A stretch of 64,000 nucleotides of DNA, from the NCBI GenBank assembly GCA_964426735.1, contig CAYRRP010000002.1, forward strand, positions 6,582 through 70,581, written 5' to 3'. This DNA is from an uncultured Candidatus Saccharibacteria bacterium. GTDB taxonomy: Bacteria > Patescibacteriota > Minisyncoccia > Phycocordibacterales > DATDWN01. A program made the position numbers and the translations under genes. How positions within the stretch are numbered: the stretch's first letter is position 1; each line of letters starts with the position of its first letter. Under the pieces are notes generated by a model, which was not told the DNA's origin, searched no databases, and saw only the letters and a list, made by a program, of their open reading frames with translations. Shown one piece after another: positions 15,787 to 64,000 of this stretch.

Positions 15787-15873
15787 GGAGGATTCGTATA
15801 GCGGTCTAGTGCGCTCGCTTGGAAAGCGGGTAGGGAAGAAATTCCCTCAGGAGTTCGAATCTCCTATCCTCCG
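15787..15873 (+). tRNA. tRNA-Ser (anticodon GGA), class II with long variable arm
   Basis: Acceptor GGAGGAT/ATCCTCC, anticodon loop TTGGAAA, variable arm AGGGAA-GAAA-TTCCCT, T-loop TTCGAAT. No encoded CCA. Confidence 0.8.
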
Positions 15874-15891
15874 CTAAAATTCGAAGTGCTG

Positions 15892-20771: not shown

Positions 20772-22010
20772 GTAGGTGTGTCAAAGAACAGAGTAATTTT
20801 TCATATGGATGGGGATGCTTTTTTTGTTGGATGTGAGGTGGCAAAAAATCCAAAACTAAAAGGTCTTCCTGTTGTCACCGGGCAGGAGCGCGGGATTGTT
20901 TCTGCGCTTTCATACGAAGCCAAAGCACTTGGCATAATCCGTGGTATGCCTATTTTTCGCGTAAAGAAAAATTTCCCAAACGTTTTAGTGTTGCCAGGTG
21001 ACTATGCGTCCTATGTCATGTATTCAGAAAAAATGTTTGATATTGTGCGCCGGTATGCAGACGATGTGGAGGAATACAGTATAGACGAATGTTTTGCAGA
21101 CCTGACAGGGCTCGACAGACCGCTCCATATGACATACACACAAATAGCCGAGAGAATTAAAAAAGAAGTAGTGGCAGAACTCGGACTTTCGGTTTCTGTC
21201 GGACTCGCTCCGACAAAAGTTTTAGCAAAAGTTGCATCGAAATGGAAAAAACCAGATGGACTTACGGTGATTGACTTAGGACATATAACACAGTTTCTGA
21301 CAGAGACACCGATAGGTAAAATCTGGGGTATAGGGCCACGCACCGCAGAGCGTTTACAGAGATTGGGGATAAAAACAGCGGGAGACTTTGCCGGCAAAGA
21401 TATGACGTGGGTCAAAAATAATTTATCTAAACCATATATAGAAATATGGATGGAGTTAAATGGGGTGTGCGTACACCACGTCGACCCAAACCCAAAAACA
21501 ACATATTCCTCGGTGCAGAAAACGAGAACTTTTTATCCGACAACAAACGACAAGGTTTTTCTCCTTTCGCAGATATCCAAACATACAGAGGAGGCTTGTC
21601 GTAAAGCGAGACACTACAACCTCGTTCCCAAAAAATTTTCTTTCTTTTTGAAAAGTCATGATTTTACATATTATTCACACACAGTAGTGTTAGAGGTACC
21701 TACACATGCACCAGAAACGTTGGTCAGTATCGCACGGTCTCACCTCGACAAAGCTTGGCGTCCAGGTGTGCAGTTTCGGACCACAGGCGTGACTCTTTCA
21801 GAACTCGAGCCCGAGGGTGTAAAACAAGGTGACTTGTTTGGTGCGATTGAAAAAGCAACAAAGTTTGAGATCATACACAAACAAATAGATAGTCTAGAAA
21901 AAAAGTTTGGTAAAGGTGTAGTGCATCTCGGCAGTACAGACAAAGCAATAAAAAACAGAACCCTCGGTACCGACTCGGACGATCTTTCTCGCGACTTGCT
22001 GTTTTTGTAA
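20748..22010 (+). CDS. umuC: Y-family DNA polymerase (UmuC/DinB-like); start codon uncertain (GTG 20748, GTG 20778 or later)
   Basis: VIFHMDGDAFFVGCEV is the h-h-D-x-D-x-F-F-a-x-x-E palm motif. A little finger domain follows. Confidence 0.8.
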   Translation: MNECSLYNVGVSKNRVIFHMDGDAFFVGCEVAKNPKLKGLPVVTGQERGIVSALSYEAKALGIIRGMPIFRVKKNFPNVLVLPGDYASYVMYSEKMFDIVRRYADDVEEYSIDECFADLTGLDRPLHMTYTQIAERIKKEVVAELGLSVSVGLAPTKVLAKVASKWKKPDGLTVIDLGHITQFLTETPIGKIWGIGPRTAERLQRLGIKTAGDFAGKDMTWVKNNLSKPYIEIWMELNGVCVHHVDPNPKTTYSSVQKTRTFYPTTNDKVFLLSQISKHTEEACRKARHYNLVPKKFSFFLKSHDFTYYSHTVVLEVPTHAPETLVSIARSHLDKAWRPGVQFRTTGVTLSELEPEGVKQGDLFGAIEKATKFEIIHKQIDSLEKKFGKGVVHLGSTDKAIKNRTLGTDSDDLSRDLLFL

Positions 22011-22044
22011 GAGAGTATCTGCACCAGGAAACTGGTCATCTGGC
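21987..22044. repeat. 58-bp direct repeat, copy 1 (last 8 codons of umuC-like gene plus 34 bp downstream)
   Basis: tctcgcgacttgctgtttttgtaagagagtatctgcaccaggaaactggtcatctggc. Copy 2 is at 23058-23115, with a single mismatch. Confidence 0.85.
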
Positions 22045-22093
22045 ACTGATTATTAGTGTCGCTGACTGTTGCTATTTTTAAATAAGGTTACCA

Positions 22094-22122
22094 TTGACAT
22101 AACGCTATCCGTATGCTAAGAT
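22094..22122 (+). promoter_or_regulatory. consensus promoter TTGACA-17-TAAGAT upstream of GC-rich gene, with SD aaggag 8 nt before ATG 22198
   Basis: Sequence read directly. Confidence 0.55.
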
Positions 22123-22197
22123 AGCGCAGGATTCATGAGCTATTTCTGGCTCAAAAAATGCATATTCCCAAACCCAAACGAAAGAAGGAGACAAGCT

Positions 22198-22932
22198 ATG
22201 GCAACCGATGGTCCTGATCCCGCACCCTGTAAGCCTGATATTCTCAAGAAAGGCAGGGGTGTCTGTGTCCTCGACGGTAGTTCCAACGCTGTAGAGCGTT
22301 GGGTACAGTCTGTCGCTAAGAAAGCTAACGCTCAAGTCGACTGGCATTACAGTGGTGGACGAGCGAACGTTCTGCATCTCGGTGACGACACAAGTCGTCA
22401 GCGCGTTCTGAACGCAATCAGTGAGCTCAGAGGTGAACTCAAAGGTCGGATTCTCAGCGTCGACGGTCCTGCCCTCTATAGTAACGATATCGAAGATCCC
22501 GAAGCAAGCGGCGCAGTCGTTCGTGAAGTCGACGGCCAACTGGTGCTCGATGATCCGATCGCCGTCGCGGTGATCAGGGTGGTGGAGAAACACAACTGCC
22601 GTAACACACTGGAACTGAACGCCGATCGCGTCAAGCACTTCAAGCGTCGGCTGACGGAGCGTGGCATGACTCCAGATCAAGCGGTGATCGTTCTCCTGAA
22701 CGTCGACGACGTTCACGGCGGTCCGCTCGCGAACGCTCTGATGCCCGGACACAACTGGCAGGAAATCCGTGACAAGGGAGAAGTCCCTTTCGCGCGAGGA
22801 CTCGCCATGCGAGACGGCATTCAGAAAGCGCTCGGTGCTTTCGACAAGGACGCCGCGACGAAGTTGCAGAGCATCAGCGACGTAGCTGTCGTGGTAGTTG
22901 ACCACGGTGTCGCCGAAGTATTCGCGGCCTAA
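22198..22932 (+). CDS. hypothetical protein encoded by a GC-rich (foreign-composition) insert
   Basis: 244 aa. Strong third-position G/C bias in this frame, and a good SD and promoter. The antisense ORF 22105-23043 is judged an artefact of GC richness. Confidence 0.55.
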   Translation: MATDGPDPAPCKPDILKKGRGVCVLDGSSNAVERWVQSVAKKANAQVDWHYSGGRANVLHLGDDTSRQRVLNAISELRGELKGRILSVDGPALYSNDIEDPEASGAVVREVDGQLVLDDPIAVAVIRVVEKHNCRNTLELNADRVKHFKRRLTERGMTPDQAVIVLLNVDDVHGGPLANALMPGHNWQEIRDKGEVPFARGLAMRDGIQKALGAFDKDAATKLQSISDVAVVVVDHGVAEVFAA

Positions 22933-23057
22933 CCGCAAAACTTCGCAATGGCACAATGGGCGCACGACCTTCGGGTACGTGCGCCTTTTCTTATACCACA
23001 TCCAATGAACGAAGCCACAGAGTTTAGAGTAACCATCAGACACGGAGAGGAAGCGTC

Positions 23058-26815: not shown

Positions 26816-27394
26816 TTACGTGCGGCGCCGGAGTGCTGCGATGCCGATGAGCCCTGCGCCCATGAGGACGAAGGACATCGGTTCGGGTACCTGGGATGTC
26901 ATGTTACCTGACCATGCAACGGTGGTGTCGGGGTTGTATCCACCAGCGTACTGAGCTGATATTGCCCCGGTGACAACTGTCGGGTCGAAACCATTCCCTG
27001 TAACTGTGCCGGTGAACGCGGCCGACAGAAAGTCAACCCCGCCTGGTAGACTCGTGAGTACCCAGACATTCGCCCCTTGCCAGGAGGTCACATCGACGGT
27101 GAATCCGTTGAAAGTGAGAAAGCCTGGCATCGGGATGTTGCCGAGGATGTTGGTTGCGGTTCCGCCGCTCCCGAGGGAGCTGCTGAAATCGCCGGTAGCC
27201 GGGGTTACGACAGTGAACGACGGGGTACCGATGAAGGTACCACTGTTCATGTTATTGATTTTGATGTTCGCCACCGGTGAGCCGAAGTTCACCGTGCCGT
27301 AGATTGGTGCGGCGGTTGCCGCCGGTGAGAAGAGGCCGAAGCCAATGACTGCGATCATGGCCAGGAGGCCATTTTTTAAAAAGTTTTTTACCAC
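26816..27394 (-). CDS. PEP-CTERM sorting-domain secreted protein
   Basis: Signal peptide. C-terminus VPEPMSFVLMGAGLIGIAALRRRT (PEP motif + TM + basic tail). GC-rich. Confidence 0.7.
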   Translation of the reverse strand: MVKNFLKNGLLAMIAVIGFGLFSPAATAAPIYGTVNFGSPVANIKINNMNSGTFIGTPSFTVVTPATGDFSSSLGSGGTATNILGNIPMPGFLTFNGFTVDVTSWQGANVWVLTSLPGGVDFLSAAFTGTVTGNGFDPTVVTGAISAQYAGGYNPDTTVAWSGNMTSQVPEPMSFVLMGAGLIGIAALRRRT

Positions 27395-27527
27395 TTTTTA
27401 CTCCGATTTTTTTTTCAATGTACATTGTCACCGACCTGCTTCGAAAACAGTTCGATAGACATTGCCGTCAAAGACACTATCATGTTTTATTTAATACGTC
27501 AAGTATTTTTTAAACTTTTTTTGTATG

Positions 27528-27566
27528 AAAAAAATAATCCCCGGTCACGTAAGTGACCGGGGATTG
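27528..27566 (-). terminator. terminator atccccggtcac-gtaa-gtgaccggggat + T-run (minus strand)
   Basis: 12-bp stem. Confidence 0.65.
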
Positions 27567-27592
27567 GTTGGGTTTGAAAGAACTGGTTTTTG

Positions 27593-28378
27593 TTACGCGC
27601 CGTTGTGATGACGGCGCCGGAAGAGCGCAATGCCGACAAGGCCTGCGCCCATGAGGACGAGGGTTATCGGTTCAGGGACTCCAGTTTGTTGGTCGGGTGG
27701 ACCTTGCATTACTACAAACGCCTTGTTAGCCGCGTTATTGCCGGACGCCATGTTGCTGGTTCCGTCGAAGAACACGAGTTCCCAAATGGTGCTGGGGACG
27801 AATGCTACCACATCACCGACTCCGTTGGTCGGATCGAGGATGCTGTAGAGCACGTTCGGTACTGACGGGTCACGCCAGTACATATTAAGGAGTCCTTCGA
27901 GGAGGGAAATTCTGACTACCAGTTCAGCGGAGTTTGACCCACTGTTTTGTTGAAACCTAAACCCAGCTGCGCCACCAGCATTGGTACCAAAGTATTGGCT
28001 GTTGGCCGGCGTCCAGTTTGGACTGGTCGAACTGCCCGTGAACCCTCCAGTTCCGTAGGCGTAGCTGGCTAAGTTCATGATTTGTGTACTGTACGGAGAG
28101 TTCCCGTCCAGATACGGCAGACCGTCTTGGTTGGGTGTAAACCCGGGTTGCCAAGATCCTACGGTATTACCTGACCCGATGAGGCCGAAGTTCCCGGTCA
28201 TCAGAATGGTCATGCTTGTGTAGGTGCACGCGTTTGCAATTGCACAGAGCTGAGGTAGAGCTTGAGCTCCAACCAAAAGCGGACTGTTGTTGGTGTACGG
28301 CGCCGCCTGCAGGGAGCAGGTGAGTGCCGTAGTGATAAGAAGAATGGCAAATGCCATCTTCTGGTTTTTGATAAACAT
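27593..28378 (-). CDS. PEP-CTERM sorting-domain secreted protein (paralog); start taken at MFIKNQKMAFAILL
   Basis: C-terminus GVPEPITLVLMGAGLVGIALFRRRHHNGA. GC-rich. Confidence 0.7.
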   Translation of the reverse strand: MFIKNQKMAFAILLITTALTCSLQAAPYTNNSPLLVGAQALPQLCAIANACTYTSMTILMTGNFGLIGSGNTVGSWQPGFTPNQDGLPYLDGNSPYSTQIMNLASYAYGTGGFTGSSTSPNWTPANSQYFGTNAGGAAGFRFQQNSGSNSAELVVRISLLEGLLNMYWRDPSVPNVLYSILDPTNGVGDVVAFVPSTIWELVFFDGTSNMASGNNAANKAFVVMQGPPDQQTGVPEPITLVLMGAGLVGIALFRRRHHNGA

Positions 28379-54624: not shown

Positions 54625-55335
54625 ATGGAAAAAAACATCACTTCAGGTCAGAACACGGTAGACGCACTCTTTGCAGTAGGGGCTCATTTTGGCTTCGTAA
54701 AATCTCGACGACATCCGTCACATAAACCGTTTATTTTTGGTACAAAAAATAAGATTGAAATTTTTGACCTTGAAAAAACAAAAGTATCTTTCGATAAAGC
54801 ACTTGAATTCGTAAAAGAGCTTGGGGCAAAAAACGCACCAATCCTTTTTGTGAGTGGTAAAAGTGAAGCAAAAGAAGCTATTGAAAAAGCAGGAACAACT
54901 CTTGGTTTTCCTTATGTTGCCGGACGATGGTTGGGAGGAACACTGACAAACTTTCCTGAAATCAGAAAGCGAGTAAACAAACTCGAGGATCTTCTTTCTC
55001 AGAAAGAAAAAGGTGAGCTTGCAAAATATACTAAAAAAGAACGACTTTTGATTGATCGAGAAATCGAACGAATGAAAATCTTTTTCACAGGCCTTTCAAA
55101 TCTTAAAGAAATGCCAAAAGCACTGTTTATTGTAGATACAAAACGTGAGTATTCGGCTGTAGCAGAAGCAAAAGCACTTAATATTCCAATAATCTCTCTT
55201 GTTGGGTCAGATTGTAACTTAACTGAAAGCTCATACCCAATTCCGGGGAATGATGCATCAAAAGCAAGTATTTCATATTTTATAGATCAGATTATTAGTG
55301 CGTATCGAGCAGGTCAACTTTCAAAGACTCAGTAA
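54625..55335 (+). CDS. rpsB: 30S ribosomal protein S2
   Basis: ...LFAVGAHFG..., ...RWLGGTLTN.... Confidence 0.9.
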   Translation: MEKNITSGQNTVDALFAVGAHFGFVKSRRHPSHKPFIFGTKNKIEIFDLEKTKVSFDKALEFVKELGAKNAPILFVSGKSEAKEAIEKAGTTLGFPYVAGRWLGGTLTNFPEIRKRVNKLEDLLSQKEKGELAKYTKKERLLIDREIERMKIFFTGLSNLKEMPKALFIVDTKREYSAVAEAKALNIPIISLVGSDCNLTESSYPIPGNDASKASISYFIDQIISAYRAGQLSKTQ

Positions 55336-55379
55336 TACTTGTTTTCTTTAGGTTTATTTATTTGTTAATTTAAAATTCT

Positions 55380-55964
55380 ATGGAAATCACAACAGAACTT
55401 ATCAAAACACTTCGAGATCAAACAGGGGTGTCTGTTATGCAATGTAAAAAAGCTCTTGAGGAGGCAGGAGGAGATATGGATAAGGCTGTGATTATTCTCA
55501 AAAAAAGAAGTGCTGAGACTGCTCAGAAAAAAAGTGATCGTGAACTCGGTGCGGGTGTAGTGGAGAGCTATATTCATAGTACAAAAACTGTAGGCGCAAT
55601 GGTTGAGCTTATGTGTGAGACTGATTTCGTATCTGGAAATGAAGAGTTTAAAAAACTTGCATACGATATCGCAATGCATGTTGCTGCAACAAATCCAAGT
55701 GTACTTACAAAAGAAGAAATTTCTGAAGAGGCTAAAGCAAAAGCACTTGAGGTATTTGCACCTGAAGTAGAAGGTAAGCCAGAAGAACTTAAAGCAAAGA
55801 TTCTTGAAGGTAAACTTGATTCATTTTTTAATGAACAGGTTCTTCTTGATCAAGCGTTTATAAAAAACAGCGAGGTGACTATTCGAGGTTTGATTGAACA
55901 AGGTACTCAAAAATTTGGAGAAAAAATACAACTCACACGATTTGTTCGGTTCTCAATTAAGTAA
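55380..55964 (+). CDS. tsf: elongation factor Ts (short form)
   Basis: LIKTLRDQTGVSVMQCKKAL (UBA-like N-terminus) ...GAMVELMCETDFV.... Confidence 0.85.
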   Translation: MEITTELIKTLRDQTGVSVMQCKKALEEAGGDMDKAVIILKKRSAETAQKKSDRELGAGVVESYIHSTKTVGAMVELMCETDFVSGNEEFKKLAYDIAMHVAATNPSVLTKEEISEEAKAKALEVFAPEVEGKPEELKAKILEGKLDSFFNEQVLLDQAFIKNSEVTIRGLIEQGTQKFGEKIQLTRFVRFSIK

Positions 55965-55973
55965 TTTAATTCT

Positions 55974-56384
55974 ATGACAATTACAGTGTTCATATCGTCT
56001 TTTGTGGCATTACTTGCCATGATTGGAACGAAAATGATTGAACAGAGACTCGGATCATTTCCGCTGTGGACTCGTCTCGTGTCAAAAACTGATGAGGTTG
56101 TACATGATGTAGTAAATCGGGTTATCGGTAAGTATCAACTATGGAAGAAAATTACATATCTTTTTGTATTTAATTTTTTACCGTCGTATGCATATGAGTT
56201 GCTCGTAAAGATGAAGGATTATGTGTATAAGAAGTACTATGAATCTCAGTCAAAGCTAAAAGGGAATAAACGTATGCTTCGTGCCAACGGATCAGTATCG
56301 TCATTTTTACAGGAGATTAGTTCAGAACCAAAAAAAGAAGAAGTAGTAAATGATAATGAGGTGGCTGATGTAGAGTTGAAATAA
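55974..56384 (+). CDS. hypothetical membrane-associated protein
   Basis: 136-aa ORF with a hydrophobic N-terminus. Confidence 0.35.
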   Translation: MTITVFISSFVALLAMIGTKMIEQRLGSFPLWTRLVSKTDEVVHDVVNRVIGKYQLWKKITYLFVFNFLPSYAYELLVKMKDYVYKKYYESQSKLKGNKRMLRANGSVSSFLQEISSEPKKEEVVNDNEVADVELK

Positions 56385-56427
56385 AGTTTTTTGTTTGATA
56401 AACTAGTTTAGTTAAACGTGAAATATG

Positions 56428-56503
56428 CCACTTTAGCTCAGTTGGTAGAGCAGCCGTTTTGTAAACGGCAGGTCGTCAGTTCAAGCCTGACAAGTGGCTC
56501 CAG
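56428..56503 (+). tRNA. tRNA-Thr (anticodon UGU), CCA encoded
   Basis: GCCACTT acceptor, D-loop AGTTGGTA, anticodon loop TTTGTAA, T-loop TTCAAGC, then T-CCA. Confidence 0.85.
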
Positions 56504-58033
56504 AACCTGACTTTCTTCAGGAATCACGGAGGATGCGTGGGCTCGCTGTAAATAGACCCAAGGATTATCGCTAGGATTTAGAACATGGTTTGGGGAAATC
56601 GGCGCGATGACGCGCAAGGTTTTGTTTTGGAGAAGGAGGTTCGAGCCAAAGACTTTTTTGGCAGCGACCTTTTTATGCAAAAGGTCGCAATCCAATGCGA
56701 TTTTTTCCATATCCACGGCCTCTTTTATCCATTTTTGCATCGGTTCGAGCCAATGATTCTGCTTTTGTTCTATGGAAGATATTTCCTCCTCCAGTGACTT
56801 TTTCTCGGATAGCAATTTAGCTTTTTCACAACGATAGACTTCCTTATCAATATCCTGTTCCAAGTATCCGTCCAAAAGTCGCTGGAGCTTAACCGAAATA
56901 TCTTTTATCCTTTTTTGATTTTTTTCTACAAAAGCAGAAACAGATTGGGCGGAGTTTGTTCTATCATGTTCTAATTTGGTATTCAAATAGTCCGCCCAAT
57001 CTTTCGGCATAGAAACTTTTTGAAGTAAAGAGGAAATTTGCGCGTCTAATGATTCCTGGCGAACACAGGGTTCAGGACACTTCATATCTTTCCGTTTCTT
57101 AGTGCAGTGATAATACGTATAGAAGTGTTCCTGACCGTTCAACTGCTTTTTAACCCTGTATTCGCCAGTAATCATCATTCCACAAGACGCGCAGGTTATA
57201 AGTCCGCAGAATACCTGAGGCTGATTTTTCTGCTTGAAACGCGGACGGCTTTTTTGCTTCAAAATTTCCTGAACTCTATCAAAAAGTTTCTTTGACACGA
57301 TTGGCTCATGATTGCCTTCGTGAATTTCTCCAGCGTATCTGAAGTGTCCGTAGTAAAAGGGGTTAGAGAGTATAAATGTCGCTCGGGAGATGTGAATTCT
57401 CTGTCCGATCTTTGTGATGAGGCGGTTTTGCTCCAAAAAGACCCCAATTCGTTCGAGCGTTTGATCGCCCTTAGAATACATCTCAAACGCTTGGCGAATC
57501 ACAGGCGCTTGCTTCCTATCTACTACAACAGTCTTAGACCGTGAATCGTTCAAATACCCGATAGGAGCAAGCGACGGATATTCGCCACGACGAACTTTTT
57601 GGCGCAAACCGCGCTTAGTGTTCTCGGACAGGGAATCCACATAGTATTTGCTCTGCCCGAAAGCGATACTTAACATAAATTTACCCTGTGGCGTGGACTC
57701 AAACCAAAAGCTGGGGAATTTCAAACCGACGATTACACTTGTATCAAGCAAATATATTATTCTTCCACCATCAACAGAATTACGAGCGAGACGGTCTGGA
57801 TGCCAAGAGAGAATAGAGTCTGCTTCGCCCGCTTCAATTTGTAAAAGCATATCGTTAAACATTGGTCTGCCAGGAATTTTGGCACTTTGCTTTTCAATAA
57901 ACTCGCGAGCGATATCCAAACCTTCTCTCTTGGCAAAGTCGCGTAACTCTTGCAACTGTGCCTCGATGGATAATATTTGCTTGTCCTCTACGTCGGTTGA
58001 TTTGCGTGCATACAAAAAGAATTTTTGAGCCAT
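56438..58033 (-). CDS. large serine recombinase (resolvase catalytic domain + recombinase domain + zinc ribbon + coiled coil); 3' end uncertain because the ORF reads through IR-L and antisense tRNA-Thr
   Basis: N-terminus FLYARKSTDVEDKQILSIEAQ (catalytic Ser), ...DRLARN..., zinc ribbon CGLITCASCG...YYHCTKKRKDMKCPEP. Confidence 0.8.
   Translation of the reverse strand: MAQKFFLYARKSTDVEDKQILSIEAQLQELRDFAKREGLDIAREFIEKQSAKIPGRPMFNDMLLQIEAGEADSILSWHPDRLARNSVDGGRIIYLLDTSVIVGLKFPSFWFESTPQGKFMLSIAFGQSKYYVDSLSENTKRGLRQKVRRGEYPSLAPIGYLNDSRSKTVVVDRKQAPVIRQAFEMYSKGDQTLERIGVFLEQNRLITKIGQRIHISRATFILSNPFYYGHFRYAGEIHEGNHEPIVSKKLFDRVQEILKQKSRPRFKQKNQPQVFCGLITCASCGMMITGEYRVKKQLNGQEHFYTYYHCTKKRKDMKCPEPCVRQESLDAQISSLLQKVSMPKDWADYLNTKLEHDRTNSAQSVSAFVEKNQKRIKDISVKLQRLLDGYLEQDIDKEVYRCEKAKLLSEKKSLEEEISSIEQKQNHWLEPMQKWIKEAVDMEKIALDCDLLHKKVAAKKVFGSNLLLQNKTLRVIAPISPNHVLNPSDNPWVYLQRAHASSVIPEESQVLEPLVRLELTTCRLQNGCSTN
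56499..56706. repeat. left inverted repeat (IR-L) of the serine-recombinase element; begins inside tRNA-Thr 3' end (ctcca); carries a 45-bp insertion (56646-56690) that forms a perfect 10-bp hairpin
   Basis: The reverse complement of 58063-58226 matches 56499-56645 and 56691-56706 with zero mismatches. Confidence 0.85.
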
Positions 58034-58062
58034 ATATTTTATTAGTTAAAAATTATTTTTGT

Positions 58063-58226
58063 AAAAAAAGTAAAAATCGCATTGGATATCGAACCTCCTT
58101 CTCCAAAACAAAACCTTGCGCGTCATCGCGCCGATTTCCCCAAACCATGTTCTAAATCCTAGCGATAATCCTTGGGTCTATTTACAGCGAGCCCACGCAT
58201 CCTCCGTGATTCCTGAAGAAAGTCAG
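58063..58226. repeat. right inverted repeat (IR-R) of the serine-recombinase element
   Basis: Perfect reverse-complement match to IR-L, minus the 45-bp insertion. Confidence 0.85.
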
Positions 58227-58504
58227 GTTCTGGAGTGTCTTTATGACTCCGCTAGAACTTTCTTCATTAAACTTGTTTAATGAATTCCGTCCCGTCACAG
58301 TGTCCGTTCCACCGAACACAGGATGTGTTCGGCTCCACTCCCACTGTTCCGCTCCGCCCTCGCCCCGCCACCTTGAACCATGCTAGGTTTGTTTCGCGCG
58401 GATTTCTTTTGAGTTGTATGTCGGTGGGCGGGTCTCGGGCGGGGAACTGTTACGATATATCATAACATTGTGATAGACTGTAACAATGAGATATACTGTG
58501 GATA

Positions 58505-58711
58505 ATGAAAAAAGAGGCTGCAAAACTGGGGTTAAATCTGAAAAGAATTAGGACAGAAAAAGCAATATCTCAAGGAGATATTGCTCGCGAATTAAAGGTT
58601 AGCCGTGGTTTTATTAGCACTATTGAAAATGGAAAAACGAACCCGACACTTTCAACTATTTCTAAAATCGCTAAAGCACTGGGGATTTCAATTGATGAAC
58701 TTTTGAAATAA
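58505..58711 (+). CDS. XRE-family helix-turn-helix transcriptional regulator
   Basis: 68 aa with ISQGDIARELKVSRGFISTIENGKTNPTLSTISKIAKALG. Confidence 0.7.
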   Translation: MKKEAAKLGLNLKRIRTEKAISQGDIARELKVSRGFISTIENGKTNPTLSTISKIAKALGISIDELLK

Positions 58712-59005
58712 AAGATCACGACAAAATCCATCCTCTGTCTACCGGAAATTTGCTGGCTCAAACTGGGGATGATTTAACCTTTTAATATCAATTTAAAGTA
58801 GGTGAAATCCAAAAGCATTGACTCCTCTGAGTTCATATTGATATCTTAAGAATGTATAACTTGTAAGTATCAGTGAAGATTTATACATTTCCGCTTTACC
58901 GTAATTACATACTGAACATCAGAATTTTTAGCTTAATATAAGATTTATTTTATCGATTAATTCAAATCTAACTTCTCAAGTTCGATCTATTGAAGTAAAA
59001 CACAC

Positions 59006-59671
59006 ATGAAAACACTTAAAACTACGCTTTGCGTAATGGTTATTATTTTTGCTGCGAATTTATTTTTTGTTAAAACTACTTACGCACAAGTAGCAGTTGG
59101 TTCAGATAAGATTAGCACTTATGTAGTCCGGCAAGGAGATACTATTGGTGAAATTGCAGAAAAATTTGGTATTAACATTAAAACACTTTTGTTGGCAAAT
59201 GATATTAAAATAGCATCAAAAATAAAGATAGGACAAAAACTGTTAATACCGCCTGTTTCAAGTCAAGGCCTCGGAAAAAAAGTCTCTAACAACTTAATTA
59301 AAACTACTAAAGGTATCGGAAAAAAGGTTGCTTCCTTTTTTGTAAAACCCGTCAAGGCTGCTACAAAAACCCAAGGAATTCATGGAAAGAATGGGGTTGA
59401 TCTTGCTGCGAAGGAGGATACTCCTATTCTCGCTGCTGCTAACGGAAAAGTGACAGTGAGCCAAACTGGATGGAATGGTGGGTATGGTAATTATGTCGTT
59501 ATAACTCATAACAATGGACTTCAAACATTGTACGCTCACAATAATGAAAATCTGGTCTCTGTCGGAGACAAGGTCATTCAGGGACAAATCATTGCCCATA
59601 TGGGTTCTACAGGTAAATCTACAGGTAGCCACGTTCATTTTGAGGTGAGAGGTGGGAAGAACCCATTCTAG
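59006..59671 (+). CDS. LysM domain + M23 family metallopeptidase
   Basis: Signal peptide, LysM (YVVRQGDTIGEIAEKFGI...), and M23 motifs H..GVDLAA and GSHVHFEV. Confidence 0.75.
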   Translation: MKTLKTTLCVMVIIFAANLFFVKTTYAQVAVGSDKISTYVVRQGDTIGEIAEKFGINIKTLLLANDIKIASKIKIGQKLLIPPVSSQGLGKKVSNNLIKTTKGIGKKVASFFVKPVKAATKTQGIHGKNGVDLAAKEDTPILAAANGKVTVSQTGWNGGYGNYVVITHNNGLQTLYAHNNENLVSVGDKVIQGQIIAHMGSTGKSTGSHVHFEVRGGKNPF

Positions 59672-59717
59672 ATTTGAGTTTATTTAGAAATGCTGTAATG
59701 GATATATATTAATTGAT

Positions 59718-60125
59718 GTGATAATATTCTTCTATCAAATTATGTTTAAAAAGCATACAAGTCTAAAAGAAAGATTTTTGGGTGCCACTTTACTTGTTGC
59801 CCTTACAGTCTTTTTATCTTTCGGACATATATTACTGTCACCGTCTGTTGCATTCGCGAATGATAAGGTGCATAAGGATGAAGTACCACACGCTCCAGAT
59901 GCAGAAGAACATTCACCCTGTCCAACCGAGTTACATCTAACCATAAGTAATCGAGCAACATCCGATGACGACCAAAACTCTATTCCTAAGATTGATTATT
60001 TTCCTGTCACATTCTATTCAAACAGTACTTGTCTTGAAGACCATCTAATATCTTCGTACTTTTTCCCAATTGAAAAACTTCCACCCAGGCTTCCACAACA
60101 TCAAAAAACAAATCTGTTGATTTAG
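59718..60125 (+). CDS. hypothetical secreted/membrane protein
   Basis: 135-aa ORF with a hydrophobic N-terminus. Confidence 0.35.
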   Translation: MIIFFYQIMFKKHTSLKERFLGATLLVALTVFLSFGHILLSPSVAFANDKVHKDEVPHAPDAEEHSPCPTELHLTISNRATSDDDQNSIPKIDYFPVTFYSNSTCLEDHLISSYFFPIEKLPPRLPQHQKTNLLI

Positions 60126-60202
60126 AAGAGTCCTAACACCTCGCGGCATATATATGCACGAGTTTGTTTCTATTATTTAGCGAACTCTAATCTAAAACAA
60201 CT

Positions 60203-61105
60203 ATGAATAAATTAATTTATATTATTATCGGCATCCTAGTGATAGGAGGCGGAACATATTATATAACTACACAAAATAAGACTGAATCAGTGGCTTCTGA
60301 GGTTAGCAAAGAGGAATCGAAAGACTCTGTGACCAAAGAAAATATGAATGCTAACAACATGATGGCATCAGATATGGCTGTTCTTGCAGGAACGCGGGTT
60401 ATTTTGAAAAATTCGTCCTTCAAAGCCGGAAGTCAGAATATTCCATTTGAACTCTACGGCAAGGACGGACATCTATTTAGCGATGCTGAGTTAAAAATTA
60501 CCCATGAAAAAAAGATGCATTTCATTATGGTTTCATCTGATTTTTCAGATTACCAACACGTACATCCAGAATTCAAAGATAAATTATGGCAGGCACCAGT
60601 TATCCTAAAGAACAATATTGCATATCAAGCTTATGTCGATATTGATTCTGAAGCTGGCTTAGAAACTCTACGACTTCCTATAACTGTCGGTACTCCACAA
60701 ACAGTGTCAAAAGTCTCACAAAAAGAAACAACACTTACTAAGGATGGTATTGAAGTAAAAATGAAGGCAGAAAATGGTTTTGTCGCAGGTAAAGAAAATC
60801 TTGTTATTTTCACTGTTTCAAAGGCAGGTAAAACAATTATTCCTCAAAATTACCTAGGCGCAAAAGGTCACGTAGTAGCACTTGGGGATGATCCAAACAC
60901 ATTCATACACGGACATCCTGATGATCATGGAGATAATGAAATTCACTTCGCCTTTGGTTTTAAAAAGGCCGGAATATACACACTCTTTGCGCAATTCCAA
61001 GTTGAAGGTGTAGTTCGCACATATCCTTTTACTGTGACAGTAACTGGCGCAATAAGTTCTATCGATGAGAGTAAGCCTCATACCGATACCGTTCAACATA
61101 ACTAA
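60203..61105 (+). CDS. membrane-anchored periplasmic protein with two His-rich segments (HVHPEF; HGHPDDHGDNEIHF), candidate metal-binding partner of the downstream efflux system
   Basis: N-terminal TM helix and paired His-rich motifs. Its position is upstream of a CusBA-like pair. Confidence 0.4.
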   Translation: MNKLIYIIIGILVIGGGTYYITTQNKTESVASEVSKEESKDSVTKENMNANNMMASDMAVLAGTRVILKNSSFKAGSQNIPFELYGKDGHLFSDAELKITHEKKMHFIMVSSDFSDYQHVHPEFKDKLWQAPVILKNNIAYQAYVDIDSEAGLETLRLPITVGTPQTVSKVSQKETTLTKDGIEVKMKAENGFVAGKENLVIFTVSKAGKTIIPQNYLGAKGHVVALGDDPNTFIHGHPDDHGDNEIHFAFGFKKAGIYTLFAQFQVEGVVRTYPFTVTVTGAISSIDESKPHTDTVQHN

Positions 61106-61113
61106 ATAAATAT

Positions 61114-62919
61114 ATGAATGAAAAAATCTCTTTATATAAAAGCAGGTCTTTTGAGGTATTGCAAAAACTTTCTAAAACTCAAAAAACTTCTTTAATAATT
61201 ATAAGCACGGTTGTGGTCACAGGGTTAACAGGTGTTCTTGTGTACGCAGACGAGGGGCATGATAGCCCAGAACCAGTGGTACAACAATCTGAACAAGTTC
61301 TAGTAAGAAAAGTGGGTGATGTCGACCCTGATGCAATATCACAAGAAGGACTCAGTAGCTTCTACGGTGAAATAATATCAAAAGATATTGCTTCAATTAA
61401 CGCCTCACGTGAGGGTGTTATTAGTTCTTGGAATGTATCGGTGGGAGACAGAGTTTCAGCTGGGTCAGTTCTCGGTTATGTAACAGTTACCGGAGTGTCT
61501 CCTGAGCAACAGATGGCATTGGCTGAGCAACAAGCAAACGCCTTAAAAGCGCAACTTGATTTAGAGACGGCGAATAAGATTTCAATTCAAACTGAGTCAG
61601 TCTTTGATCAAATTGCAGAATCACTTAAATCTGTAGCAAACAAACAAAGATCAATTTACGATGGCTCAGACGGCACTTTTTCCTCTACATATCAAACAGA
61701 GCTACAAACTATTACCCAACTACAAACACAACTATCAAACAAATTACAAGATTTCGGAAATACTGCCTTAAATGAAATATATCCGCTTGTCGGGGGTTCT
61801 CAGGATAACTCACCATTTAATCAAAACTATTCCCCGACAAGTCTTATCTGGGCGTTTGGAGTGAAAAAGGACTCATTAAGAAATTCCTATGCACCTTTAA
61901 GTATTTTACTTGCGGAAAAAGTTAAGGCTCGAACAGTCACCGATCAAGATATTCGAAATTACTTAGACAAAACAATAGAAATGGTAGAGGCTTCTATTGC
62001 TATAGAAAATTTGGATCTAAAAAAAATTACTGAATCTGTAAAAAATTTACAAACTGAATTACGAGATATTAGTAGTGAACTTGCTCAAGCAACAATCGAC
62101 AAAGCCTCTAAAGAACGTGAACGAAGTCAGATAGACATTGAACTCTCAAGAAGTCTTGTTGGTTTTGAAAGTGACCTCAGTTTAAAAAAACTTGAGCAAC
62201 TTTCTGCGAGTGAGCGTGCAAAAAATGAAGCCAAGGGTGCACAACTCTTAGCACAAAAATTGGCAGTGAGTGCAGGTGGAGTAATTCCTATCCTTGCTGC
62301 TAAATCAGGGGTTGTGGCCACAATTGAAAAAAACGTCGGTGAATATATCACCATATCGGACCGTATAGGGTTTATATCTAACGCTAACCCACGAAAAAAC
62401 GTACGGTTCAGCATACCTGCTTCATGGAAGGATATAAGTAAGGGAGACACTCTCTTGATTTCTTGGAGACCAGAATATTCTATGGGAAGCGCTGTTATTA
62501 CAGGCATTAGTACAATTATTGATGAGAGAGGTGGTTATCAGGCTGAAGCTGTAATTTCCCAAGGTACAGTTTTCCCTGTTGGGGCATCAGTAAGAATTAT
62601 TCCAGAAAATTCTAAAAAAGGCGTATTCGTAAACAGGAAAGCCGTAGTATTTGAAGGAGTGCAACCATATGTATGGATAATTACAGAAAGTGATGCAGTG
62701 CGAAAACAAGAAGTAAAAATAGGAAGAGGCCTTGGCGAGTATGTTGAAATACTCTCAGGTCTTGAAAGAGAATTCTCATACCTTGTTATCCTTGATCCTT
62801 TAGTACAAATTAATTCAGGCATGATGCTTTCAGAAATTCTTAAAACAGAGCCAAAGGTCGAATCTGCTACTCCAGTAAAAATTCAAGACGAGAGTCAGCC
62901 TCACGGTCATGATGAATAA
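61114..62919 (+). CDS. efflux RND periplasmic adaptor (membrane fusion protein) with extended coiled-coil region
   Basis: 601 aa with an N-terminal TM helix, a biotinyl-lipoyl-like segment (GVISSWNVSVGDRVSAGSVLGYV), a long coiled coil and a C-terminal beta-barrel. His-rich tail (QPHGHDE). Confidence 0.6.
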   Translation: MNEKISLYKSRSFEVLQKLSKTQKTSLIIISTVVVTGLTGVLVYADEGHDSPEPVVQQSEQVLVRKVGDVDPDAISQEGLSSFYGEIISKDIASINASREGVISSWNVSVGDRVSAGSVLGYVTVTGVSPEQQMALAEQQANALKAQLDLETANKISIQTESVFDQIAESLKSVANKQRSIYDGSDGTFSSTYQTELQTITQLQTQLSNKLQDFGNTALNEIYPLVGGSQDNSPFNQNYSPTSLIWAFGVKKDSLRNSYAPLSILLAEKVKARTVTDQDIRNYLDKTIEMVEASIAIENLDLKKITESVKNLQTELRDISSELAQATIDKASKERERSQIDIELSRSLVGFESDLSLKKLEQLSASERAKNEAKGAQLLAQKLAVSAGGVIPILAAKSGVVATIEKNVGEYITISDRIGFISNANPRKNVRFSIPASWKDISKGDTLLISWRPEYSMGSAVITGISTIIDERGGYQAEAVISQGTVFPVGASVRIIPENSKKGVFVNRKAVVFEGVQPYVWIITESDAVRKQEVKIGRGLGEYVEILSGLEREFSYLVILDPLVQINSGMMLSEILKTEPKVESATPVKIQDESQPHGHDE

Positions 62920-62924
62920 ATTCT

Positions 62925-64000
62925 ATGTTTAAAAAAATAGTTAGTTGGTCAACCATTAATAGGAATAAAACAATTTTCCTGGGATTACTAGTTACTCTCT
63001 TAGGAGTATATGCAGGCATGAATATGGAGGTTGATGTTTTGCCTAATATCAACAAACCCACCGTAATAGTTTTCGCAGAAGCAGACGGTCTTGCGCCCGA
63101 AGAAGTCGAAAAGGCAGTACTCGTACCGCTTGAAAATGCAGTTCTTGGCACTGCAGGTGTTGAAAGAGTTCGTGGAACAGCGTCTTTCGCATTAGGGATC
63201 GTCAATATCGAATTTCCATTTGGAAGTGATATTTACAAAAATCGACAATTAGTCCAAGAACGGATCTCCGCTGTTGCAGTACCTCCCAATGTAAAAGTTT
63301 CACTCGGGCCTGTTTCTTCTGTGATGGGTGAAATTATGTGGGCGGGTGTGAAAAGTAACTCTAATATCTCGCCGACTGATTTACGAACATATGTGGATTT
63401 CACTCTAAAACCAAACTTACTCAAGGTAAAAGGTATTTCTGATGTAATTGTTATGGGTGGAGATGTTCTTGAATGGCAGGTCAGACTCAATGCGGATGCT
63501 CTAAGTAAATACAAGATTACTCAAGAAGAAATAAATCTCGTACTGGAAAGAAATCTGCAAAATGCATCTGCAGGCATAATACAACAACAGAACAAAGAGT
63601 ACCCCGTTAGAATATTTGTGGCACCGAAAGAAATTAGTGAATTAGCAGATATTGCGATTCATACAGAAAATGGCCCTGTAAGATTAGGTGAGATTGCCTC
63701 CTTCGTAGAAGGGGCAAGTATAGTTCGAGGTGGTGCTTCTGTTGATGGTAGTCAGGGAATAATTCTTAGAATATTCAAACAACCTAATGCGGAAACGTTA
63801 AAAGTGACTAAGGAAGTGGATAGTCTTTTTGTAAATTTACAAAAAACAGCTCCAGCGGGAATTACACTACGAACAGATTTGTTTAGACAAGAATGGTTTA
63901 TTTCCGCCGGTCTATCGAACGTAGAAAAGGCATTAGTTGAGGCACTTATAATTGTTGCCGTTATTGTCTTTCTATTTTTAGTGAAATGGAAACCTACCCT
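62925..64000 (+). CDS. CusA/CzcA-family heavy-metal efflux RND transporter, N-terminal part (runs off window end)
   Basis: Translation MFKKIVSWSTINRNKTIFLGLLVTLLGVYAGMNMEVDVLPNINKPTVIVFAEADGLAPEEVEKAVLVPLENAVLG... continues with no stop to the end of the window. Confidence 0.75.
   Translation, partial: MFKKIVSWSTINRNKTIFLGLLVTLLGVYAGMNMEVDVLPNINKPTVIVFAEADGLAPEEVEKAVLVPLENAVLGTAGVERVRGTASFALGIVNIEFPFGSDIYKNRQLVQERISAVAVPPNVKVSLGPVSSVMGEIMWAGVKSNSNISPTDLRTYVDFTLKPNLLKVKGISDVIVMGGDVLEWQVRLNADALSKYKITQEEINLVLERNLQNASAGIIQQQNKEYPVRIFVAPKEISELADIAIHTENGPVRLGEIASFVEGASIVRGGASVDGSQGIILRIFKQPNAETLKVTKEVDSLFVNLQKTAPAGITLRTDLFRQEWFISAGLSNVEKALVEALIIVAVIVFLFLVKWKPT

Follow-up and report, generated by a model that had tools for sequence, protein, structure and literature searches.

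A large serine recombinase element with paired inverted repeats and an apparently invertible recombinase module at a tRNA-Thr gene of a Candidatus Saccharibacteria bacterium

Serine integrases are prized tools of genome engineering, and control of the direction in which they work normally needs a second protein. The serine recombinases of Tn4451 and Tn5397 (TnpX and TndX) and of IS607 move their elements via a circle and without target duplication; Tn4451 has GA-dinucleotide ends and no long repeats, and the TnpA of IS607 is small and has an N-terminal MerR-type domain. Hin, Gin, Cin and Pin are small serine recombinases that work with 26-bp sites, an enhancer and Fis; hin lies inside its own invertible segment, and inversion by Gin or Cin exchanges the C-terminal coding part of a gene. 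The SSV1-type (fusellovirus) integrases of archaea are tyrosine recombinases that target tRNA genes and carry the attachment site attP in the int gene, which is split into two large parts. In the yeast 2-micron plasmid, which replicates and does not integrate, the tyrosine recombinase Flp acts on FRT sites held in 599-bp inverted repeats. The tycheposons of Prochlorococcus are cargo islands at tRNA sites in streamlined genomes; they mostly have tyrosine recombinases and often replication genes, and 27 of 937 have a large serine recombinase (bioRxiv 10.1101/2020.12.28.424599). Here we describe a large serine recombinase (LSR) gene and its surroundings beside a tRNA-Thr gene of an uncultured Candidatus Saccharibacteria bacterium. 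The sequence analysed, called the window below, is a stretch of 64,000 nt of contig CAYRRP010000002.1 (GCA_964426735.1), and all coordinates are window-based.

The locus probably represents an LSR integrative element that lies between the CCA end of tRNA-Thr and the terminator of this tRNA, carries two inverted copies of attP and contains a recombinase module that can flip. In what follows, T denotes the T-arm and acceptor 3' half of the tRNA, T* a pseudo-tRNA 3' half carried by the element, A and A' the arms of an inverted repeat around the recombinase gene, R' and R the arms of a second inverted repeat, and c the core at which they meet. S1, S2 and S3 are the three junctions that contain a core.

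Attachment sites and the inverted repeat at tRNA-Thr

The features of the recombinase end of the element are as follows.

56427..56502, plus strand: tRNA-Thr(TGT), found by ARAGORN and matched by the Rfam tRNA model (69 bits)
56438..58033, minus strand: LSR gene in its integrated form, 531 aa, from Pfam domains
56498..56502, plus strand: core c of S3 (attL), CTCCA, the last acceptor nucleotide, discriminator and CCA
56498..56644, no strand: arm A, tRNA-proximal, 147 nt, 100% complementary to 58089-58235
56645..56689, minus strand: 45-nt segment confined to the gene copy of the repeat, which codes for ..CDLLHKKVAAKKVFG.. and holds a hairpin
56690..56705, no strand: 16-nt inner extension of the repeat, which pairs with 58072-58087
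58036..58065, minus strand: promoter-like site of the recombinase, TTTACA-18-TAAAAT, a consensus match only, which ends just before the ATG
58089..58235, no strand: arm A', inverted copy upstream of the recombinase gene, A half of the internal attP (S2)
58231..58235, plus strand: core c' of S2, TGGAG, the reverse complement of CTCCA
58236..58280, plus strand: T*', the reverse complement of T*, pseudo-tRNA 3' half; its reverse complement is GTTCTAGCGGAGTCATAAAGACAC

A repeat search of the window found arms A and A' to be 147 nt long and 100% complementary, with a spacing of 1444 nt, and arm A shares the last 5 nt of tRNA-Thr, CTCCA. The 16-nt extension brings the match to 163 positions; between the matched blocks lie 45 nt in the left copy (56645-56689) and 1 nt in the right copy. 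An earlier, sequence-only reading of this DNA had reported a perfect 163-position inverted repeat that begins inside the end of tRNA-Thr and has a 45-nt insertion with a perfect 10-bp hairpin in its left copy. All of this was recovered, and the main repeat is as it was described there; its left coordinates were off by 1 and its right range, 58063-58226, by about 9. The hairpin (gcgacctttt/aaaaggtcgc, 5-nt loop) occupies 56664-56688 within the recombinase coding region and is kept in the clade, where a compensatory change is seen (GACC/GGTC in the window, AACC/GGTT in relatives). A 60-nt probe from the arm has only two matches in the window, the two arms themselves, with 0 expected by chance. 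Arm A also has an inward-facing terminator-like hairpin at 56602-56615, followed by a T-run, and inward terminator-like hairpins are present within the arms of 31 of 50 loci.

Related loci were gathered by exact-protein lookup (4), from species-representative genomes of GTDB (80) and from JGI metagenomes (35). About 100 related Patescibacteria loci have the same layout, at tRNAs of at least 15 identities (Thr, Phe, Asp, Tyr, Leu, Met, Gly, Gln, Ile, Arg, Val, Ser, Lys, Glu and Trp). The open reading frame (ORF) of the recombinase converges on the tRNA 3' end and overlaps it in about 60 of the 65 genome loci with a complete 3' end, and the 3' end of the ORF is linked with the region upstream of its start codon by inverted repeats, 80-165 nt long except for one of 344 nt. 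In every locus the gene-side arm reaches 3-7 nt into the tRNA 3' end. Within a locus the arms are 72-100% identical, mostly 95-100%. Many of the related contigs break inside the arms, and such breaks are expected at true inverted repeats in de Bruijn-graph assemblies. Because the architecture recurs in about 100 independent loci, the repeat is neither a chance match nor an assembly artefact. The two circumstances that the sequence-only reading had named as fatal to its proposal, a common dispersed repeat together with a single orientation, or an artefact of assembly, can thus be set aside, with the probe matching two window sites only, and its view that the repeats have a biological meaning is supported.

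The attachment sites emerge from an alignment of the three junctions at 30 loci. S3 consists of T, core and A; S2, which is internal and inverted, of T*, core and A; and S1 of T*, core and a sequence X. In most of the 30 loci X is a hairpin with a T-run (for example AAAGACTTCCGAATGGAGGTCTTTT in L023 and AAAACCCAGGCTTATCCTGGGTTTT in L040), and it is the tRNA's own intrinsic terminator, displaced. The interval between S3 and S1 is therefore an insertion between the CCA end of the tRNA and that terminator. S3 is attL (in the window, tRNA-Thr has the sequence ..AAGTGGCTCCA at the core) and S1 is attR, the attP of the element is T*-core-A, and S2 is an intact, inverted copy of attP kept inside the element. 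Of the hallmarks of tRNA islands, attL and attR with a common core were found in the 30 loci, and the displaced terminator after S1 in most of these and in the syntenic relative described below; for the window genome they are deduced from contig ends. Mismatches at the junctions in L022 (T|ACCA versus C|ACCA) and L059 (TCAC|CA.. versus TCAC|AC..) narrow the crossover to ACCA / TCAC, and the junctions leave only a short crossover region of 4-7 nt within the common core; we infer a crossover within the discriminator-CCA bases, (N)CCA.

T* lies beyond the promoter-side arm in 50 of 50 loci, where it has the form ..aaaataGGTTCGAGC-N15-|NCCA and mirrors the real tRNA end at the other arm, ..GGTTCRAnnCC-N12-|NCCA. 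From the junction to the T-loop-like hexamer the distance is 22-23 nt in T* and 17-19 nt in the tRNA (41 loci). Of these loci, 36 show a shift of +4 bp between the two and the other 5 a shift of +5 bp, without exception, and in the window the hexamer of T* is 23 nt, and the GTTCAA of tRNA-Thr 19 nt, from the junction. In the LI integrase system the motif of the zinc-ribbon domain is 5 bp farther from the crossover in attP than in attB (PMC3783163). The displacement seen here is that of the LSR family, a motif about 5 bp farther out in attP, and it argues for T* as a P-type half-site and the T-arm of the tRNA as a B-type half-site; the T-arm and acceptor 3' half of tRNA-Thr make up T, the half-site of B type that the chromosome contributes to attL. 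Neither at the A-arm ends nor in the X flanks is there inverted similarity to T* or T.

Upstream of the recombinase gene, the best-conserved non-coding block in relatives is GGAGGTTCGA(W)ATCCAATGCRATTTTT. It lies at 58072-58098 in the window, directly before the promoter-like site, with equivalents in L001, L002, L004, L091 and L100, and shares the GGTTCGA motif of T*; it may be an operator to which the recombinase binds. An attempt by eye to draw a tRNA-like fold in the inner GGTTCGAATCC block of the arm gave no convincing T-arm, and in an Rfam scan of 55000-60000 at E <= 1 the tRNA alone was matched.

There is one copy of the module in the window. Several recombinase copies at different tRNAs are present in some genomes, for example JACKGP01 (L030, L034 and L036); same-genome copies at different tRNAs are 52-55% identical to the window recombinase, the only sequence with which they were compared. 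In L057 (near 5764) and L066 (near 6410) arm A adjoins a T*-like remnant in place of a tRNA, and L047 and L077 have several modules and recombinase copies within 8-11 kb. These arrangements suggest that elements insert one after another at old attR sites and form arrays in tRNA clusters.

The genes around the element (L31, prfA, rpsB and tsf) mark ordinary chromosome. Elsewhere in the window, a tRNA-Ser(GGA) gene at 15787-15874 apparently lacks an encoded CCA, as read from the sequence, and carries no element; a hairpin of its own, GAGGGAGTT..AACTCCCTC, comes next and is taken as its terminator. Elements at other loci mostly use tRNAs with an encoded CCA. The GC content is 0.54 at 22001-23000 and 0.51 at 27001-28000, against a background of about 0.39.

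The recombinase, its C-terminal tail and the orientation of its module

The recombinase has the Pfam domains PF00239 (Resolvase, residues 6-151, E = 1e-21, with the motif LYARKSTDVEDKQ and Ser12), PF07508 (Recombinase, residues 174-260) and PF13408 (Zn_ribbon_recom, residues 275-336). It therefore combines a catalytic domain that contains the nucleophilic serine with the recombinase and zinc-ribbon domains of the LSR family (the domains being found by Pfam and phmmer, the coiled-coil insert being assumed). Residues 175-422 align by phmmer to the C-terminal domain of the A118 integrase (4kis/6dnw, E = 5e-12). The PDB matches are the A118/LI integrase, the SPbeta prophage serine recombinase (deposited as resolvase homolog YokA) and TnpX. 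The sequence-only reading had identified the protein as an LSR, which these results confirm, and had proposed aligning it with known serine recombinases; A118/LI and SPbeta are the best matches, and that to TnpX is weak and lies in the catalytic domain (E = 4e-4). The order resolvase-recombinase-zinc ribbon, with no N-terminal helix-turn-helix (HTH), is not that of the IS607/Tn4451 type. There are more than 7900 homologues of the recombinase at E <= 1e-20, and an exact-protein lookup of the 531-aa window ORF returned no record. No second conserved gene, such as one for a recombination directionality factor, accompanies the recombinase among the loci compared.

The recombinase mRNA is probably leaderless, judging from the position of the promoter-like site; in L100 a TATAAT lies 6 nt before the recombinase ATG. 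Two loci with the native tail described below, L091 (150-273) and L092 (140-264), have a leader of about 110 nt between promoter and start codon with a long-range pairing, AATGGCCGTC..GGGGCGGCCATT, and the window has no such leader.

Residues 1 to about 475 of the recombinase are conserved, and residues 463-512 are encoded by arm A, which is translated as a variable C-terminal tail. Read in the recombinase frame, the 2099 arm codons of 50 loci include 0 stops, whereas each of the other five frames has 28-67. The ORF crosses arm A and the antisense tRNA, as had been noted from the sequence, and stops within the D-loop, so that the last 19-20 codons of the window recombinase are antisense tRNA (..PLVRLELTTCRLQNGCSTN*). 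Many homologues are also 530-531 aa long because the stop falls in conserved D-loop sequence. The C-terminus, which the sequence-only reading had left unclear, can now be placed for the native form: across the attP configuration (A-core-T*) the ORF ends 13-16 codons past the core, with its stop in T* and the ending ..YDSARTFF... The integrated-form tail reads ..QVLEPLVRLELTTCRLQNGCSTN and the native tail ..QVLECLYDSARTFFIKLV. The latter, x(F/L)Y(D/N)xARTYF.. followed by a stop, is conserved in 36 of 36 loci, and about 17 of the 120 best homologue clusters have it. In the window it reads ..QVLE|CLYDSARTFFIKLV* and is encoded by a plus-strand mirror ORF at 58116-58280. The hexamer variants of T* (GTTCGA, GTTCTA, GTTCGG and GTGCGA) all preserve Arg-Thr, and the tRNA-typical GTTCAA would give a TGA stop in the tail frame; T* is thus constrained both as DNA and as protein. 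The native C-terminus of the recombinase is thus encoded across attP, and in the orientation of the window antisense-tRNA codons have taken its place.

The usual orientation of the module is that of the window, L001 and L009. The other orientation is present at the orthologous locus. L100 has the order prfA-rpsB-tsf-tRNA-Thr(TGT)-GGCTCCA-arm-promoter-ATG, with the recombinase on the tRNA strand, and is thus flipped at the DNA level. The contig P0006 has, by gene layout, rpsB(+), tsf(+), a 125-aa gene(+), a gap of 427 nt and a recombinase(+) that is a 526-aa protein with the native tail, which matches the synteny of the window with the module flipped. The module is also flipped in L096 at tRNA-Thr(CGT), L098 at tRNA-Gly and L062 at tRNA-Trp (tail FEKIRTEFAKN*), and overall in about 3 of 22 informative metagenome loci and about 15% of related loci and proteins. 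Across populations, therefore, this repeat-flanked segment occurs in both orientations, which were not seen together within one population. The invertible segment that the sequence-only reading had offered as one of two alternatives agrees with the opposite orientation in L100 and P0006, and a flip-flop reading of the recombinase module is supported by these gene orders. The inversion products expected of the recombinase would also arise by homologous recombination across the 147-nt arms.

The contigs with a native tail, L090-L095, all break in the upstream arm, which is compatible with a flipped integrated form or a free circle. Also considered as circles, and rejected, were short contigs with arms of 55, 99 or 127 nt at both ends; they resemble unitigs cut at the arms, and 55, 99 and 127 are typical assembler k-mer sizes.

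The arms evolve in concert. Arms A and A' are 100% (window), 96.6% (L001) and 95.9% (L009) identical within a genome and 66-78% between genomes. For the R arms, identity is 98.6% within a genome, over a distance of 15.6 kb, and 88.5% from one genome to another. As DNA, the window and L001 recombinase genes show about 89% identity, and cargo synteny is common to both. Because identity is higher within genomes than between them, the identity of the arms reflects ongoing homogenisation after integration, by gene conversion or flipping, and not a recent insertion.

The second repeat pair and the cargo

At about 35 loci with enough flanking sequence there is a second repeat pair, R'/R, of 85-325 nt and mostly 99-100% identity. 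It abuts the A/A' pair at the same core and encloses 0.7-4 kb of unrelated cargo, for example an HD-domain protein with a methyltransferase, TrmB, SocA/Panacea or a 1256-aa protein. Cargo content is wholly different between loci, and further types across loci include efflux pumps, copper resistance, methyltransferases and parts of toxin-antitoxin systems. L021 and L040 carry their cargo in opposite orientations (a reverse match of 798 nt with 88% identity). No alignment could be made of R arms from different clades. In the window the corresponding features are the following.

58231..58443, no strand: arm R', proximal, T* and a GC-rich hairpin region, delimited from Logan contig ends and a syntenic relative
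58444..64000, plus strand: start of the cargo, from ORFs and Pfam; it runs about 5.4 kb beyond the window
58505-58711: XRE-type HTH, cargo
59006-59671: LysM/M23 peptidase, cargo
61114-62919: HlyD-like protein, cargo
Further window cargo: an RND pump and proteins of 135 aa and 300 aa

No second copy of 58236-58500 was found in the window. A truncated element was considered on this account and dropped, the distal arm R being placed beyond the window by Logan contig ends and the syntenic relative. Logan contig L085, from the same organism, starts at 58414 and, 11,001 nt on, closes with its first 30 bases in reverse complement, and three Logan contigs (L085/L086; L087 and L088, from deeper in the cargo) end with the reverse complement of 58414-58443. 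Because contig-end 30-mers mark a unique segment between inverted repeats at k = 31, the value assumed for Logan, the inner edge of R' lies at 58443. The syntenic relative has a recombinase of 90% identity, and there 10969-11185 of L089 is a 98.6% inverted copy of 5591-5807 of L001; this distal arm R continues as ..GTTCGAACGGAGTCATAAAGACA|CTCCA|TAATAAAATCCCTCACAATATTGTGAGGGATTTTATT and reads on to ..AAAATCCCTCACAATATTGTGAGGGATTTTATT, and R and S1 are 15.6 kb away. From the contig ends and this relative, the distal arm R of the window element is predicted at about 69385-69597 in window-equivalent coordinates, outside the window, with a cargo of about 10.9 kb, a right end near 69.6 kb and a total length of about 13 kb. 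The ends of the A/A' repeat, which the sequence-only reading had taken as the limits of the element, are replaced by the CCA end of the tRNA (56498) and a predicted site about 13 kb to the right.

The cargo of the relative (L089 5630-9925) has an extra copper-resistance block, with a CsoR-like regulator, a Cu-ATPase, a DsbD-like protein and a cupredoxin, that is absent from the window genome. Since the block is present in the relative only, the cargo itself is being remodelled. Positions 58280-58443 of R' are GC-rich, with nested hairpins, in an AT-rich genome. Compared with shuffled sequences, the RNA fold of the R' arm has z = -4.6 on the minus strand and z = -1.6 on the plus strand, and the arm might be a structured RNA that ends in the pseudo-tRNA 3' half, or a repeat feature at the DNA level. 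GC-rich non-coding sequence of 350-500 nt lies between the last cargo gene and distal R in L089 (10600-10960) and at the end of L086 (about 68.9-69.4 kb); Rfam has no match in the cargo end/R region of either contig.

Mechanism, alternative readings and known systems

In the sense of the tRNA, the integrated element would read attL (T-CTCCA-A), the recombinase gene pointing toward the tRNA, A'-core-T* continuing into R', the cargo, R ending in T*, and attR (T*-core-terminator). The free form would be a circle in which the recombinase and cargo segments are separated by two inverted copies of R plus A, about 360 nt each, both with an attP. Integration of one copy at the boundary tRNA-CCA|terminator would split that copy and so produce the abutting perfect pairs A/A' and R'/R. 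The T-loop-like GTTCRA motif, 4-5 bp nearer the core in the tRNA than in T*, would be the probable recognition element of the recombinase, and arm A, with its inward hairpin, could serve the tRNA as a substitute terminator. Use of the copy at the 3' end of the recombinase gene would cost the recombinase its native tail and produce the form that is common and apparently stable. The rarer form, in which the native tail is back and the gene is co-directional with the tRNA, would arise by flipping between A and A' or by integration via the other copy. Both homologous recombination (RecA) and the recombinase itself could do the flipping, and candidate roles for the internal attP are autoregulation, the flip itself and cassette exchange. 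We infer the circular free form, the catalyst of flipping and the action of the tail swap as a regulator of activity from this arrangement. Read-through from the tRNA as a driver or silencer of the recombinase was also considered, an idea weakened by the inward-facing terminator-like hairpins in the arms.

A wider reading can be stated tentatively, although as a whole we think it unlikely. It holds that the loci form a widespread, one-enzyme platform for cassettes at tRNA genes of Patescibacteria, in which two inverted attP sites would let the integrase flip, and that an orientation-dependent isoform of the tail, not a directionality factor, would decide whether the element stays or leaves. 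Loss of the ..YDSARTYF.. tail to antisense-tRNA codons would mean that the element is locked in, the other orientation would restore the tail, and the pseudo-tRNA half-site would be read both as DNA (a half of attP) and as protein (the tail).

Several points weigh against the integrative element with two inverted attP copies. Only the T/T* half of each site is conserved; dyad-symmetric sites with both halves recognisable, which textbook LSRs have, were not found. The distal arm of the window element comes from contig-end 30-mers and a relative, not from a direct reading. If either attP can integrate, a 50:50 ratio of orientations is expected; the ratio seen is about 85:15, which needs an explanation such as a less stable flipped form. 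Part of the 15% may itself be an artefact, since assemblers can mis-orient a segment between perfect repeats. Empty attB sites, excised circles and reads in both orientations were not seen for this organism in collections that were chosen for presence of the recombinase. Nor did the loci compared reveal a recombination directionality factor, and excision is accordingly putative. To our knowledge, an intact internal attP in the free form has no established role in LSR biology.

The sequence-only reading had proposed, as its other alternative, an element that consists of the serine recombinase alone, perhaps a transposon with terminal inverted repeats (TIRs). This does not hold. The 1.7-kb unit never occurs alone: T* is next to the promoter-side arm in 50 of 50 loci, and wherever the flank suffices the R pair, cargo and a displaced terminator lie on the T* side. 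The 5-nt core at the ends of the arms is inverted and is not a direct target duplication, and the marks of an IS-like transposon (a unit that occurs alone, a direct duplication, near-identical copies) were not found. What survives of the TIR idea is a reading with two nested elements, in which a cargo unit with T* ends would have come first and a recombinase-only unit with A ends would then have entered the resulting T-c-T*'; the cargo attP would be a palindromic T*-c-T*' and that of the recombinase unit a palindromic A'-c-A. S3 (T-c-A) and S2 (A'-c'-T*') do resemble the attL and attR of an a-a attP and a t-t attB, and this would restore the dyad symmetry of LSR sites (PMC3783163). Both modules are bounded by perfect repeats, and each is seen in both orientations. 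We nevertheless regard nesting as improbable. The recombinase module is always found with T* (the same 50 of 50 loci), and no naive tRNA-terminator site with the module alone was seen. With the core inside an inverted repeat, S3 x S2 recombination would invert the segment rather than excise it. The conserved tail and its stop are encoded in T*, as one transcription unit with the recombinase in A-c-T*, whereas the A-c-A' joint reads into frames with 28-59 stops. Finally, the shift of 4/5 bp marks T* as P-type and not B-type.

A further alternative, which we rate as improbable too and slightly more so, is a domesticated, immobile inversion switch for phase variation, whose link with the tRNA would be historical. 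Genomes whose recombinases are only 90% identical share the locus and the synteny of the cargo, the arms have been homogenised over that time, both orientations are present at the orthologous locus, and no directionality factor or transfer genes were found, all of which speaks for such a switch. It does not account for the 15 or more tRNAs at which different genomes have the module, with unrelated cargo, for several copies per genome at different tRNAs (JACKGP01), for the T*-like remnants that adjoin the arms in L057 and L066 and suggest repeated insertion, or for an attR that keeps the displaced terminator and so points to insertion events. An assembly artefact (fold-back or chimera), or a recombinase that landed by chance between dispersed repeats, would fit the 100% identity of the arms and the many contigs that break in them, and yet has a negligible chance of being right, given the same architecture in about 100 independent assemblies from different projects and assemblers, the variation of arm identity between 72 and 100%, the mere two occurrences of the repeat in the window, the in-frame translation of the arms and the normal behaviour of de Bruijn graphs at true inverted repeats.

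If the integrative element with two inverted attP copies is the correct reading, it represents a different design within the large and ancient LSR family, with attP in the enzyme's own reading frame, a mimic of the T-arm, a spare inverted copy and a flip between two tail states. It would account for the acquisition and shuffling of accessory genes beside tRNA genes in ultra-small, streamlined bacteria, would explain the frequent assembly breaks at Patescibacteria recombinase genes, and would offer naturally paired attP/attB sites for dozens of tRNA targets in engineering.

Compared with the phage-type large serine integrases (A118/LI, phiC31, Bxb1 and SPbeta), the recombinase has the same three-domain architecture, and the systems likewise share attP/attB half-sites with one motif shifted by 4-5 bp (PMC3783163) and a short crossover. 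Unlike them, this element targets a generic tRNA 3' end, at many genes and between CCA and terminator; one half of the site is conserved, the integrase ORF contains attP, a second and inverted attP stays in the integrated element, the integrase module is invertible, and no directionality factor is evident. With Tn4451, Tn5397 and IS607 the recombinase has the serine-recombinase catalytic domain in common; the long inverted repeats, the targeting of tRNA ends and a recombinase that never moves alone set this element apart. It resembles Hin and Gin in having a serine recombinase with a segment flanked by inverted repeats and a C-terminal exchange, but here the enzyme is an LSR, the arms are perfect and 147-213 nt long, the tail that is swapped is the enzyme's own, and the segment is part of an integrated element. 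As in the SSV1-type integrases, an attachment site lies in the integrase ORF, integration alters the product and a tRNA is the target; the difference is that the last 14 or so codons are exchanged here, and that a mirror copy lets inversion restore them. The inferred free form, with two unique segments and two long inverted repeats that each contain a recombinase site, is like the 2-micron plasmid. For the element as a whole the tycheposon is the closest concept, in a different host phylum; in the text of the tycheposon preprint, as far as a text search reaches, long inverted-repeat pairs, an internal attP copy and an invertible integrase do not appear (bioRxiv 10.1101/2020.12.28.424599). No description of such an architecture was found in the searchable literature. 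The enzyme and the logic of its reaction are those of the known serine integrase family, the design of the element is apparently undescribed, and its regulatory principle is possibly new.

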